Counted from the stretch's first letter, positions 2,996 through 20,500 are shown. The stretch: DNA of 64,000 nucleotides from Armatimonadota bacterium (GCA_963677485.1 OY781964.1:2848001-2912000); one strand, 5' to 3'. Notes: generated by a model from the sequence alone, not told the origin. Numbers and translations are program-made.

Positions 2996-3216
2996 GGGAT
3001 ATGGCGTGCCGTGCCCACCATGATCATCGGACGGATCTGACGGATCGGTCCGATTAAACGTACTAGGGGCGGTTCGCGAACCGCCCTTGGGCGTGGGGAC
3101 CACGCCCCTATGATCGAATAAACGGTTGTGGGGCGGTAGGGGCGGGGTCACCTCGCCCAAAAAACATCGTTCGGCTGGGTTACCCCGCCCCAGGGCATGG
3201 CACGCCATGCCCCTAC
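2996..3216. repeat. Cluster of GTAG-type REP-like palindromes between convergent genes
   Basis: GGCGTGCCGTGCCC, GGGGCGGTTCGCGAACCGCCC and GTAGGGGCGGGGT...GGCATGGCACGCCATGCCCCTAC; the same motifs recur near 15.6, 21.7, 29.7 and 53.1 kb. Confidence 0.8.
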
Positions 3217-15234: not shown

Positions 15235-15784
15235 TCTCACGCGAAGACGCGAAGGCGCGAAGGGTGGTACGGTATGCGGGTCAGCTTGGCCATGTCCTAC
15301 TCGTCCACCTCATCCTACCCGTCCTGTGGGGTTCATTTTAACCGCGAATGAACGCGAATGAACGCGAATGGGAACTGGAGCGTTGCGCATAGACGCGAAG
15401 GGGACGGAGAATCGCGATTGCCTATGTCCGGGGCGGTCTTTCAGAGGGATTGCGGCTGCAGATGGCAATAGACCGCGCCGGTCTTGATTCAGGGCGACAA
15501 TCTGTTGTCCCAGAAGGCTCCCAACGCAACGGCGCAAGGGACGGCGAACCGTAGGGGCAGGCCCCCGTGCCTGCCCTGTTTCGGCAGGTGGCAAACCGTA
15601 GGGGCATGGCGTGCCGTGCCCAAACGTCGCCGTGCCCAAACCCCACCATGTGCACACGAAAATGCGGGAACGCCATGGGGGCACGGCACGCCATGCCCCT
15701 ACGTGCGCGTCGTCGTCACCCCGCCCCAGGGCGCGGAAACCGCGCCCCTACACGTCGATTCCAGGCGGTCGGGAAACCCGCCCC
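15235..15784. repeat. Mosaic cluster of REP-like palindromes and 9-nt-period modules
   Basis: CGCGAAGACGCGAAG, GTCCTACTCGTCC, (CGCGAATGAA)n, TCCGGGGCGGTCT..AGACCGCGCCGG and GTAGGGGCATGGCGTGCCGTGCCC / GGGCACGGCACGCCATGCCCCTAC. Confidence 0.8.
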
Positions 15785-15800
15785 CTAGTACGCTATATAT

Positions 15801-15999
15801 GGTGAGCTCCCCGGACACCAAAAGCAGTCGGGGAGCTAATCTCACCCCTTAGCTGGGGGTGAAGGAGAAGGATTGGATGCCGGAACCGCCCCTGGTGGAA
15901 AACACCGTGACGTAGATAGGCATCCTTCTCCCAATCAACCCATATCGAACAGTATCTTGGGAGAAAACCCCGTGTTCGCTAGGCTGATTTGGTTGATTG
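15801..15999 (+). ncRNA. Predicted IS110 bridge RNA
   Basis: 5' hairpin followed by two internal-loop stems; target loop carries ACCGCCCCT (15885-15893) and GACGTAG (15909-15915); donor loop carries ACAGTATCT (15949-15957, identical to IS right end 17590-17598) and CTAG (15979-15982); RNA ends approximate. Confidence 0.82.
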
Positions 16000-16032
16000 C
16001 ACCATCAATCACTACCAACTGGAGATTACCAC

Positions 16033-17325
16033 ATGCACGAAGTTGAAGACAAAATCTACATCCATTATGTCGGGATCGACATCTCGAAATTGACGTTTGA
16101 CGCGTCTGTATTAGGTTCATCGCACAAGCCGATAGACCATAAGGAGTTCAAGAACAACAAGGCCGGATACAAGGAGTTGTTGTCATGGGTGAAGAAGCTT
16201 ACCCGAACTCCCGCCTTGTATGCGGCTGAAGCCACCGGGCCTTACAGCCGACCGCTGCTTGATTACCTCTACGAGCACCAGCACGATGCTGTCCAACTGG
16301 AGCCAAAACGGGTTCTCTATCACCGCAAAGCCAAAGGCTGGGAACAAAAGACGGACTGCTCTGACAGCGTGCTAATCGCTGACTATGTGAAAAGTCACAA
16401 TGTCTCACTCTATGTCCCTCGTCTAGCATGCTATGATGCGCTTATTGGTTACACCAATGACCGCCGTATGCTGGTGCAACACAGACAGGCGATCGCCCAG
16501 CGCCAAAGCTGTCGGCTTACGCGGAGCACAGTGCTGGACGAGATGATCGCTTTTCATGACATGGGCATCAAAAAGCTTGATGTTCAGATCAAAGAGCTTG
16601 TGATGAGTTCACCGCAGATGACCGAAGATATGGCTCTGCTGAAGAGCATTCCGGGTATCGGCGACGTCACAGCAAGCTATTTCCTTGCGAAAATCGGTGA
16701 TGCTAAACGATTTGAAACATCGAAAGCGGTCGCGCGCTATTTCGGAATGAACCCCTGCCCGCAACGGTCAGGAAGCTGCAAGACATACGACGGCTCCATA
16801 TCCAAGATGGGTGACCGATATATGCGGACATTACTCTACTGTGGATCGAGCACTGTGGTGAAGATGGTCAACGGTAAGTCGAAAAAGCTTGGCCAGAGCA
16901 TGCACGACTTCGTGAAGGAACTGCAGCATCCGAATTTGGTAAAGAATCCCAATAAGAAACCGAAGTCCAAGCGAGTTGTCCGGTGCGCAATCATGCGCAA
17001 GCAGCTGGTGCTCATGTGGTCGGTATTAATCAGCCGTCAGCCATATGATCCAAACTTCGGCATCGAACAAGCTTCAAATGCGGCCAACCAGCAACCGCTG
17101 ACCGACGCGAACGGACATGTCCAGGATCGTGCCGGAGCGGCCCATGATATAGCCGGTGTAGGCAATGATCCTGGGCTGGACGTGAGCGTTCCAAGACGGG
17201 GATGCGTGGATGGAAATCCCACCAATGAGCCCACTCCTGCCGGCGGTGGTCGGCCCGCATCCCGAAACCGGCCATCGCGCAGTCGGGTGGGCAACAAACC
17301 GAGGGTTCTGACACCAGTATCCTAG
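16033..17325 (+). CDS. IS110 DEDD recombinase/transposase
   Basis: VGIDISK, AEATG and KTDCSD (DEDD RuvC-like domain); SIPGIG; RSG catalytic-Ser region; SISKMG; GGAG RBS at 16021; ~90-aa low-complexity tail. Confidence 0.95.
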   Translation: MHEVEDKIYIHYVGIDISKLTFDASVLGSSHKPIDHKEFKNNKAGYKELLSWVKKLTRTPALYAAEATGPYSRPLLDYLYEHQHDAVQLEPKRVLYHRKAKGWEQKTDCSDSVLIADYVKSHNVSLYVPRLACYDALIGYTNDRRMLVQHRQAIAQRQSCRLTRSTVLDEMIAFHDMGIKKLDVQIKELVMSSPQMTEDMALLKSIPGIGDVTASYFLAKIGDAKRFETSKAVARYFGMNPCPQRSGSCKTYDGSISKMGDRYMRTLLYCGSSTVVKMVNGKSKKLGQSMHDFVKELQHPNLVKNPNKKPKSKRVVRCAIMRKQLVLMWSVLISRQPYDPNFGIEQASNAANQQPLTDANGHVQDRAGAAHDIAGVGNDPGLDVSVPRRGCVDGNPTNEPTPAGGGRPASRNRPSRSRVGNKPRVLTPVS

Positions 17326-17596
17326 CTGCGGCAGTCTGCCGATAGCACGCATCGAAGCATAACGATATCTTTCGAAGCCACGAAGATGTCGCACGTCCGT
17401 TCGCGACTCCGAGCGTCATGTGAGGTGCTACGGACCAACTGATGCCATCTGAGCCTGTTTCTGTCGCGGATCCAGGTTTGGTCTATATGCCACAAACATC
17501 ACATTAACGTTATTCTACGTGGTCTAGAGCCAGTGTCTGATATTCAGGTCCAAATCCCCAGATTTGCCCCTGGGGACTTGACAAAAGCCACAGTAT

Positions 17597-20500
17597 CTAC
17601 TCCAGCACGGCGAAGTGGACGCCGCCCTGGTGGGCGCTGCTGTCCAGCTTGCCCAGAGGCAGGCGGGGGGTGTCTTCTTCGCTAAGCACGGCGCTGACGC
17701 CGCTCAGGCTGACGCCCTGCTCAGGCACCAGCTTGATGACTAGCCCCTCCAGCGGATACTGCGCACGCAGCGTGAAGCGCAACTGCTTCTGACCGGCCGG
17801 TATAGGCAGCACGGTACTCAGACCGGGCAATACCGACCCATCGTGCAGCACCTGCACGCGTACATGACTGTCATGTGCGGCGGAGGCCACACCGGTGAGC
17901 TCCACCTGCGTGCCGCTGTCCAGCCGAGGCAGCGGGCCCACGGTGTTCAGTTTGACAACCTGTGGCTTCACAAGGATACGGGCATGGAACGGTGTGACAT
18001 ACACATCACCAGTCCACTCGCCGGCCTCATTTACGGCTTTAATCAAGCCGGTCCGTTTACCGGTGCCGATACCTGCCAGCGCGATGGGCTTGCCCTGCTT
18101 GTGGTAGATTTGGATTTCGCCCACGCCGCCGGTCACGCCGGGACGCGGCTTATCGCTCTCCAGCATCAGCTTCCGGATCGCCTCGTCCATCGTCTTGTTG
18201 AAGCCCTCATCGTATTCCTTCGGCCACTGCATACAGTGGACGGAGTAAACGCCGTGCTCCCACATATACTTCAGTTGCTTGTAGGCATCGTCCGCGTTGG
18301 GGGTGAGTGCTTGATACTCGCCGATGCTGATCATGTTCTGACCGGCCCGCCAGGCGTCCTGCAGCGCCTCGTGTTGCTTGTTGTACCACACGCCGTATCG
18401 GGTGAAGCCGTAAGCGGCCCCGGTGTTCAGCGCCCAGTCGATGGGGGTGATGCGCGAGGTGACGTTGCTGAATGCGCTCAGGTTGCCGATGGCGTAGGTA
18501 TCGGGAATCTGGTGTGTGCAGAGCAGCTCGGGCGGGAAGCCTGCCGCCAGTGCATTCGCCAGCGTCTGCGCGATGAAGCGGTTGACCACCGTGCGGTTGA
18601 AGTTCACCCAACTAGCGAACATCGGGTTGGTCTTTTCGTAGGCGTCCCAGGCACCGCGGTCGTTCTGCCGGGGGGCATCAAACAGATTGGAGACGGGCGC
18701 ACCCAGCTTCTTCGCGCTGGTAGTGAGCTGGTCGCCCTCCGTCTGGCGCAGATAGTCGGCGAAGTTCTGAATGTTCAGCGGGTTGTAATCGCCGTAGGTG
18801 CCGTCCGCTTCGACTGCGATTTCGTGTTCGTGGTTGGGCTCCAGCATGGCGATGTGCTCGGGGGTCTTTCGCCAATTGGTGAACAACGCCCTCAGGAAAG
18901 CCTGGTTGGGCCGATGGTAGAAGCCATCGAGGATCGGCGATCCCGTGGCGTAGGTGCTGCTGAAGAAGTCCACCGTGTCGAACTCGCCGTACAACGCCAT
19001 CTTGTTGGTGCGAGTCAGCATCGCATACGCGGGCAGTTTGGACTGAGGGTCGATGGCCTCCATCAGTTTCGGGGCCGCATGGCGTGACTGCCGGTGGGTG
19101 TAGCACGGCTCCCATTGCCCCACTATCGATGTGGCGTAGCTGTCGATCCGGCTCTTGCTGGGCACATCGTCCAGCGTGCTGAAGTCGCCAGCCAGTATTT
19201 TGTCCAGATTGCTGTATTGAGAGCCATCGGTGCGCAAATGCAGGAACTCGGAGAACTTGATGTATTTCCCATCCTGCAGCGGGTTGCCGAATGGCCAATA
19301 CCACTGGATGTAGAAGTTGTTCTCACGCTTGCCCAAATCCATCGAGGTGATCTCGTTGGCCGGGCTGAGTTTGAAGGCGATGCTCTGTAAGGGGTCGTTA
19401 CCGCTGGCCCAGAGGCTGCCGTCCTCGAACGCGCTGGGGTTCAATCGCAGCTCACGTAGTGGCTCCGGCAGGCTGATGCGCTCCACAGCTGCTGTGACTG
19501 GGTTGATCTTGCTGGCCGCATCCGCCCCTTTGTGCTGGCAGATCAGGCCGTCGCTGCTCTGGCCCGGGTTCAGGGTCAGCCAGACCGTGCTGCTGGTATC
19601 GGCCGCGGGCACCGCTCCAAGAAGCGTCTTGACAGGTCGGCCGAGTTCATCGATGATACAAACCGGTGAGCTGGCATCGTATACGCTGCCGGTGATGGCG
19701 ATCTGATCGGCTTTCGAATTAGGATCAAACCGGCCGGTGACCACGGCATATGGCGGTTTCACGGCTGCCGGCGGGGTGATCTCGCGGATCAACAGCCCAT
19801 CCTGGGTATACAGCCGCAGGTTGCGGACAGTGGCGTTGCTGGCGGGTGCGGTAAGTATCGCCACGATACCCGACTGTGTTTGCAGGCGGCGCACCGTGAC
19901 ACCACCCGTAACAGTGGCCGGATAGGCCAGGAACTGCGCCACGGGCATGGAGAACTCGTTGAGCACCCGCACCACCGTGTGGTTGTCCGGGTCGCTGCCC
20001 TCGCCGGCCACGATGACCGGTGCCTGACCTTTAGCCTGAGGTACGGTCTTCGCCAACGCCGATAGCTCCAGAGTGGGGTCCAGCAGACCCACGGCACTGG
20101 CGCCTTCATCGCTGATGGACACAGATATGCGTTCGGGCAGTTTCCTCTGCTGCAGGTTCTTGACCTGTAGTTGGGGGATATTCAAAAATTCCAAAGGTGA
20201 TGGCCTCCCTTTGATGATCAGTTGGGGTTGGCCCCACACTGCCCAGTCCAACGCGCTGTTCTTCTGCGGGTCAGTCAACAGGCTGATCGTCACCGTCTTG
20301 CCCGCATAGGCTTTCAGGTCGACTTTGAAGGGCACCCATTTCTGCTGGTTGTTTGATAATGCCAATGCGGTGGTTCCATTGATCTTGATGATGAACTTCA
20401 CGCCATCAAACAAATTCTCCACCGACGGTTTGAAGCCTTCACGGATACCCACCCAACCGGTGAGCACGAGTTTCTCTTTCGCTTTGATGGTCGGCAGCTT

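Follow-up and report, generated by a model that had tools for sequence, protein, structure and literature searches.

Here, we present an analysis of an insertion sequence (IS) in a window of 64,000 nt from an Armatimonadota bacterium (GCA_963677485.1 OY781964.1:2848001-2912000), counted from the first letter of the given strand. At this locus, a REP-like hairpin (REP, repetitive extragenic palindrome) is followed by an element that we call IS-A, which consists of a left end with a predicted bridge RNA, a recombinase gene and a right end. A preliminary description, made from the sequence alone, had read the element as an IS621-like bridge recombinase with an RNA programmed for a local REP family; all of its sequence statements were located where it had placed them or at most 1 base away. 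The coordinates of the features are collected in Table 1.

The recombinase contains the domains PF01548 and PF02371 (1.8e-21 and 4.4e-22; scores of 77.0 and 78.7 bits, the cut-offs being 29 and 21.3, respectively). Its best relative with a solved structure is the IS621 transposase (PDB 8wt6, E = 2.5e-28), to which it is 28.1% identical based on tblastn, and the second best is the ISCro4 bridge recombinase (PDB 9t56, E = 5e-26). D16, E66, D108, D111, and S246 lie opposite D11, E60, D102, D105, and S241 of IS621 (chain numbering offset 2), in which the roles of the DEDD and Ser residues have been described (PMC11208158), and all five residues are invariant in eight aligned sequences (IS-A and seven relatives). 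The last ~90 residues (342-430) form a tail that is predicted to be unstructured (predicted local distance difference test below 35). In a search of 5.8 billion proteins, only seven were more than 40% identical to the recombinase (five at 61-95% and two at 41-42%), while all remaining proteins were at most 34% identical; the IS-A recombinase clade is small and isolated.

With the element as query, we found 12 full-length copies in the genome that contains the window, a single contig of 5.22 Mb; ten copies measure 1814 bp and two 1798 bp, and four short matches of ~70% identity in the same search are part of a second, related element. All 12 copies start with CTAGTACGCTATAT and end with AAGCCACAGTATCT; the boundaries at 15785 and 17598 are exact. 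The preliminary description had proposed comparing the boundaries and flanks of other copies, and this comparison gave identical ends in 12 of 12 and flanks that correspond to the predicted target. Beyond the ends, the flanks are unrelated except for a short left-hand repeat, the ~25-nt REP. The ten full-length copies have 0-2 single-nucleotide polymorphisms (SNPs) relative to the window copy, the 430-aa open reading frame (ORF) is intact in all ten, and no SNP lies within 15785-16032. The CT core is present at both ends of all copies, joining the flanks restores REP-CT-AC, and the insertion is bounded by this core without long terminal inverted repeats, as is characteristic of the IS110 group. 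The left end (LE) measures 248 nt and the right end (RE) 273 nt. In two isolate runs, IS-A collapsed to one contig spanning 15782-17599 at ~10-12x the depth of the flanks; because these runs may come from the same strain as the genome, their depth provides no independent support.

The ends of IS-A carry the halves of a split promoter. When RE was joined to LE by script, TTGACA and TACGCT were brought together with a 17-nt spacer, reproducing the circle promoter that had been predicted, and by sequence a sigma-70-like promoter is rebuilt at the RE-LE junction as in the IS110 group. The −35 hexamer TTGACA is invariant in five relatives. At an integrated copy, by contrast, the REP contributes the hexamer GGCGGT at a distance of 17 nt upstream of TACGCT. 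Because GGCGGT replaces TTGACA at this position, integrated copies should make the RNA poorly; poor RNA production from integrated copies has been reported for IS621 (PMC13626964).

The predicted fold of 15785-16035 has a z-score of −3.96 and was equaled in none of 200 shuffles. The hairpin and two internal loops of the preliminary description are recovered together with a second 5' hairpin, so that the structure consists of two 5' hairpins and two long stems, both of which have a terminal hairpin and a large internal loop. This is the RNA layout of the IS110 group, i.e., a 5' stem-loop in the left end followed by two stem-loops with internal loops, plus the extra 5' hairpin. On the 5' and 3' sides, the first loop carries GGAACCGCCCC(U) and UGACGUAGAUA, and the second carries ...ACAGUAUCU and GUGUUCGCUAGG, respectively. 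As had been noticed, the donor loop contains both CTAG and ACAGTATCT, which is repeated at 17590-17598, the right end of IS-A, and the target loop spells ACCGCCC-CT-ACGTC through guides at 15885-15893 and 15909-15915, with which the flanks of the copies agree. Beyond the loops and the right terminus, neither guide 9-mer occurs elsewhere in the element on either strand; the chance expectation for a given 9-mer in the 248-nt left end is ~0.001 by our own arithmetic. In the IS621 model, 4-7 nt on the 3' side of a loop pair with the top strand (PMC11208160), and on this model the guides of IS-A would specify the target ACCGCCC-CT-ACGTC and the donor ACAGTAT-CT-AG... Pairing on the right side of the donor is short and comprises CUAG and a discontinuous GUGU, which would pair with ACGC of the left end. 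Short pairing on the right side has been reported for IS621 as well (PMC11208160). Under the IS621 rule, handshake guides are the bases that pair with non-cognate DNA after strand exchange (PMC11208158); as a matter of sequence logic only, A15916/U15917 could pair with donor T7/A6 and G15983 with target C7.

A consensus fold was obtained from five related elements. The 34 proposed pairs of the two guide modules are 94.7% paired in the five sequences, and in six of them both partners have changed; shuffling gave an equally good result in 2 of 500 cases, and slid controls were 32-46% paired. Runs X6 and X15 were compared with 15300-18100 of the window. In a ~94% identical relative from a digester metagenome, 15830-16004 differs at a single position (15883) compared with ~100 differences elsewhere in the element. 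Contigs of a similar relative in a biofilm RNA library cover 15782-16152 and 16177-16837, a presence in the library that is no proof of transcription.

The target REP is asymmetric and reads (A/G)A-GGGCGNTTCGCGAANCGCCC-CTAC. On this point the preliminary description was only partly right: the symmetric 28-mer (GTAG...CTAC) that it had proposed has no match in the genome. Ten of the 12 copies have the 20-nt palindrome GGGCGNTTCGCGAANCGCCC as their left flank, one of these with a mismatched arm; the + strand of the genome holds 38 such palindromes, of which nine carry IS-A. The left flank matches the 7-nt left guide perfectly in six copies, with one mismatch in five and with three mismatches in one, the window copy, and the right flank begins with AC in 11 of 12. 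To relate insertion to guide matches, occupancy was counted over every genomic N7-CT-AC site, i.e., those outside the copies and the occupied ones. The empty sites numbered 3 with a perfect match, 144 with one mismatch and 584 with two; the occupied share was 6/9 for perfect matches, 4/148 for one mismatch and 0/584 for two (perfect versus one mismatch, p = 8.7e-7, Fisher). In the window, a cluster of REP-like palindromes (GTAGGGGC...GCCCCTAC type), at least four of them distinct, directly precedes IS-A (15540-15784), and the window copy is placed within this cluster, where it adjoins a variant hairpin (15764-15784). The genome also has three Y1_Tnp (PF01797) genes (at 376078, 2992049, and 4121913), which could encode REP-associated transposases or TnpA of IS200/IS605.

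Related elements provide natural guide swaps. IS-B, in the same genome (loci L040, L013-L016, and L043), is 45% identical to IS-A at the protein level; its intact copy (1296594-1298385) measures 1792 bp from CT core to CT core, and a second copy (2667671-2672044) is split by an insertion (2668304-2670866, 2.56 kb, 6-bp overlap). IS-C (42% identity) has nine copies in the sister genome G001 of the same genus, and two metagenomic contigs contain the further members L044 and L045. The bridge RNAs of these four elements align with that of IS-A over their full length, while the 7-nt left guide differs. In IS-B, the guide is CGCGCCC and the left flanks are CGCGCCC and CCTGCCC; in IS-C, the guide GTCATCC recurs as the left flank in six of nine copies and with one mismatch in the other three; L044 has the guide GTGGCCC and the flank GTTGCCC, and L045 has CGTGCCC and CATGCCC. 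No guide fits the flank of another element better than its own flank, L045 tying with the two IS-B flanks. The right guide, (N)ACGUAG, is common to all relatives, and the right flank begins with ACG in both IS-B copies, L044, L045, and eight of nine IS-C copies. The target palindromes of IS-A, IS-B, and IS-C differ from one another. A single-protein search of genome contigs found no relative, and an alignment-based scan of metagenomes gave relatives at ~42% and more distant ones, not the 61-95% identical proteins (P0001-P0005); because these scans missed the closer relatives, guide covariation is limited to five elements.

Table 1. Features of IS-A and its insertion site (window coordinates)
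Feature	Coordinates	Strand	Remarks
REP-like hairpin giving the left target of the window copy	15764..15784	+	last 7 nt CCGCCCC (15778-15784)
Whole insertion sequence IS-A	15785..17598	+	1814 bp; CT core at 15785-15786 and 17597-17598
Right donor half-site AGTACGC	15787..15793	+	overlaps TACGCT; aligns with TGTATGC (IS-B/IS-C) and TGTAT (IS621)
−10-like TACGCT	15789..15794	+	left end
Predicted bridge RNA, ~200 nt	15801..16000	+	start inferred from −10, end from last helix
5' stem-loop	15805..15837	+	fold and consensus fold
Second 5' hairpin	15842..15862	+	fold; kept in all 5 sequences of consensus fold
Target-binding module	15864..15931	+	first internal loop of predicted fold
Left target guide ACCGCCC+CU	15885..15893	+	ACCGCCCCT / ACCGCCCCU; 5' side of first loop
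Right target guide GACGU+AG	15909..15915	+	GACGTAG in DNA; 3' side of first loop
Putative handshake A, U	15916..15917	+	directly after right target guide
Donor-binding module	15932..16000	+	second internal loop
Left donor guide ACAGUAU+CU	15949..15957	+	ACAGTATCT; 5' side of second loop
Right donor guide GUGU ... CUAG	15972..15975 ... 15979..15982	+	CTAG on 3' side of second loop
Putative handshake G	15983	+	directly after right donor guide
Recombinase gene	16033..17325	+	430 aa; GGAG 9 nt upstream of ATG
Conserved ~130-nt hairpin in 3' extension of recombinase ORF	17084..17213	+	clade-specific
Small hairpin CCCCAG...CTGGGG	17556..17575	+	just upstream of −35; different hairpin there in IS-B/IS-C
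−35 TTGACA	17578..17583	+	right end; faces −10 only after circularisation
Left donor half-site ACAGTAT	17590..17596	+	identical in IS-B, IS-C, L044, L045 and IS621
Right target of the window copy, ACTCC	17599..17603	+	AC alone fits guide

Altogether, we estimate at roughly 0.9 the probability that IS-A belongs to the IS110 group of the IS110 family, has been active recently and works like IS621. It is a new natural example of a known mechanism, and the mechanism itself is not new. By analogy with IS621, we infer for IS-A the circle, the transcript, RNA binding, and catalysis, and the following order of events may be envisaged: (i) the DEDD/Ser recombinase would excise IS-A as a circle with one CT core at the RE-LE junction; (ii) this junction would set TTGACA 17 nt from TACGCT and drive synthesis of the ~200-nt bridge RNA, followed by the recombinase mRNA; (iii) the first internal loop would pair with the target; (iv) the second would pair likewise with ACAGTAT-CT-AGTACGC at the junction; and (v) strand exchange at CT would insert IS-A at the CTAC end of GGGCGNTTCGCGAANCGCCC, the target palindrome.

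Several observations weigh against this model. First, the right guide predicts ACGTC, while the 12 right flanks vary beyond AC; because of this variation, only 4 nt of the right guide (core and AC) are visibly used. A 4-bp pairing between right target guide and right target has likewise been reported for IS621 (PMC11208160). Second, the imperfect match of the occupied window site, CCGCCCC-CT-ACTCC, that had been pointed out earlier was found again: without gaps, its left target differs from ACCGCCC at 3 of 7 positions, the worst of the 12 copies, although in an alternative alignment it has one extra C and one mismatch. Because of this copy, base pairing alone does not explain every insertion. 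Tolerance of a bulge is one possible reading; a contribution of the hairpin itself may be another, and a "half-match" insertion of the kind described in 10.64898/2026.08.31.748434 could be a third. Third, the covariation of the bridge RNA is supportive rather than strong because it comes from only five sequences, four of them close, and a scan of 15300-18000 against Rfam (E up to 10) returned chance-level matches to snR39 and mir-764 only and no bridge RNA. Fourth, the left end of IS-A is shorter than the right end, the other way round from the trend reported for the IS110 group (PMC11208160). Fifth, neither an RE-LE joint nor an empty-site joint (15784/17599) was found in the sequencing runs, all of which were assembled contigs and uninformative on circles. 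Finally, the 1798-bp copies carry a frameshifting 16-bp deletion (16471-16486) that splits the ORF. These two copies lie at 1369194-1370991 and 1871159-1872956 of the genome; because they share the deletion, the deleted form was copied or mobilized in trans.

An alternative to guide-directed insertion is that the target is chosen mainly by protein recognition of the REP hairpin and that the identities between loops and flanks add little. All 12 insertions, including the window copy with its three mismatches, are located at the 3' foot of a GC-rich hairpin, and for ISPpu10 a target stem-loop has been reported as a second layer of specificity (10.64898/2026.03.19.712850). However, guide and flank change together in the five elements, and occupancy drops from 6/9 to 4/148 upon a single mismatch, even though many of the one-mismatch sites are also REP ends. 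Hairpin recognition is therefore plausible as a layer added to the guides and unlikely as the main determinant. Less probable still is that IS-A is a dead relic spread by segmental duplication, with a flank logo that merely mirrors copied flanks. The two frameshifted copies would fit such a history; by contrast, past the ~25-nt REP the 12 copies have unrelated flanks, with no long shared ones seen, ten copies retain the intact 430-aa ORF with at most 2 SNPs, and relatives with other guides occupy other repeats. Equally improbable is a true guide RNA at the 3' end, as in IS1111/seekRNA elements, with some other nature for the 5' structure, for which the unusually long right end and the conserved + strand hairpin at 17084-17213 would speak as its core, since the 7- to 9-mers of target and donor and their reverse complements are confined to the 5' loops and the right terminus, the bridge RNA of IS621 can be aligned with the 5' RNA, and by inspection the 3' hairpin has no internal loop matching target or donor.

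The hairpin within the ORF is an additional feature. Over 17081-17214, IS-A and IS-B share 79% of their DNA sequence despite 45% protein identity, and the third codon positions in this region (0.73-0.77 identical versus 0.11-0.57 elsewhere) are as conserved as the first and second. The hairpin folds on the + strand (z = −3.56), and its 50 pairs are 94.8% paired in five sequences with seven compensatory changes, a result equaled in 0 of 500 shuffles. An antisense-RNA reading was dropped, the − strand folding no better than shuffles (z = −1.21). Among 28 sources, a model of this hairpin matches only the IS-A/B/C clade, and IS621 has no match.

Donor motifs also occur alone at REP ends. Five sites of the genome (1990835, 2010704, 2382966, 264920, and 3436711) have a REP end continued by CT-AGTACGC, which contains the right-donor motif of IS-A, in the absence of the element; two of the five are copies of one repeat. 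A near match (AGTACGt) lies on the − strand of the window at 3058-3066, within the locus 3058-3086. Genome-wide, there are 1586 [CT]GCCCCT sites, 341 of them followed by AC, and among the 1586 about 0.1 solo AGTACGC sites are expected. The IS-B motif TGTATGC is likewise found alone at five sites. In G001, where IS-A was not found, there are seven GCCCCTAGTACGC sites, six of them on a palindrome of the IS-A type, compared with 0 for the reversed-pattern control. Some solo sites lie inside a larger composite repeat. In the genome with IS-A, an abundant ~190-nt repeat resembling a miniature inverted-repeat transposable element (e.g., 1990843-1991035) contains GCGCCGGCCGGAGCGGAGCGAC and in some places adjoins the REP palindrome as a fusion; the number of BLAST matches ranged from 92 to 160 with different queries. 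Looking for composite elements that run from a solo CT-AGTACGC to ACAGTAT-CT, we obtained only chance-level CAGTATCT and an ordinary downstream right end of IS-A. The solo sites were compared with G001 as possible breakpoints of rearrangements: their flanks were non-collinear in two of three cases and those of plain-REP controls collinear in two of two informative cases, a third control giving no information; these numbers are too few, with one match possibly to a paralogue; the orthologous intergenic regions in G001 hold other repeats and do not reveal the origin of the solo sites. The ORF hairpin and the solo motifs are apparently new features, at least to us. We tentatively raise the doubtful possibility that the clade (IS-A/B/C and metagenomic kin) has a second functional RNA module that IS621 lacks and, jointly, that solo REP ends are fossil or reusable attL-like half-sites for bridge-RNA-guided rearrangement. 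If so, the ORF hairpin could control or scaffold transposition, for instance through binding to the recombinase or by determining how much of it is made from the junction transcript.

Bridge recombinases are under development as tools for programmable DNA insertion, excision, and inversion, and active natural orthologues are the raw material for this work. IS-A offers a useful comparison in that 12 near-identical copies come with a natural specificity profile, i.e., occupancy as a function of guide mismatches, and three sister elements show different guides on the same scaffold, with homologous RNA at ~28% protein identity to IS621. Because copies, specificity profile, sisters, and distance from IS621 are combined here, the element should be useful for finding essential RNA and protein features. 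IS-A, IS-B, and IS-C also show how such elements partition REP families within one genus.

The bridge-RNA mechanism was published in 2024 together with thousands of computationally predicted orthologues, among which this clade may be listed (PMC11208160). ISCro4 (PDB 9t56) matches the IS-A recombinase over the same region as IS621, a likeness at the protein level alone. ISPpu9 and ISPpu10 of Pseudomonas putida are, by description only, similar to IS-A as multi-copy IS110-family elements inserted beside GC-rich palindromes; unlike in IS-A, a small-RNA gene lies downstream of the ISPpu9 transposase (PMC12288879). The IS1111/seekRNA elements share the recombinase family and the RNA-guided logic; however, their guide RNA is in the right end, and they have subterminal inverted repeats of 7-17 bp (PMC11208160). 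Assignment of IS-A to the IS1111 group was rejected, its guide motifs being in the left end only.

For the comparison with IS621, we used the copy in a fetched Escherichia coli plasmid record (L079), in which the left side reads ...ATCAGGC|CT-TGTATTAT... and the right side ...TTGCAG-gccataACAGTAT-CT|ACGTG; its loops read UAUCGGGCCU, GCGUAGAU, ACAGUAUCA, and GUAUUUGCAAGG. This record bears out what had been stated of IS621 in the preliminary description, namely its CT core, ACAGTAT-CT donor, REP target, and layout. A covariance model (R1), built from the five clade members with IS621 left out, scores 129.6 bits on the IS-A bridge RNA and matches IS621 at L079:443-595 on the correct strand with 17.6 bits, the alignment including all four guide segments (E = 0.016 in a search of 27 sources and 2.4e-4 when IS621 was searched alone, filters off). 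Four relatives at greater distance are also matched by R1, in regions preceding their recombinase genes, at E values between 1e-7 and 3e-4. That IS-A is IS621 itself was rejected at 28.1% identity; it is a separate element of the same group. The earlier label of distant orthologue is fair because the proteins are ~28% identical, and the target guides do differ; the donor guide is, however, conserved in its left half only. IS621 has a protein of 326 aa compared with 430 aa in IS-A with its ~90-aa tail predicted to be disordered, a right donor TGTAT instead of AGTAC(GC), and the target ATCAGGC-CT-AC instead of ACCGCCC-CT-AC. Only IS-A has the second 5' hairpin, the right end of 273 nt, and the conserved hairpin inside the ORF, and the basal stem of its target module is longer; the IS621 RNA is described as having a 5' stem-loop (nt 1-33) followed by the target-binding loop with no second hairpin (PMC11208158). 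Across this distance, the two elements share PF01548/PF02371 with the DEDD and Ser residues, the CT core, the left donor ACAGTAT, a bridge RNA in the left end with the target module before the donor module, handshake bases A,U and G in the same places, a promoter split across the junction, and insertion at the CTAC end of a REP with a right target that begins with AC.

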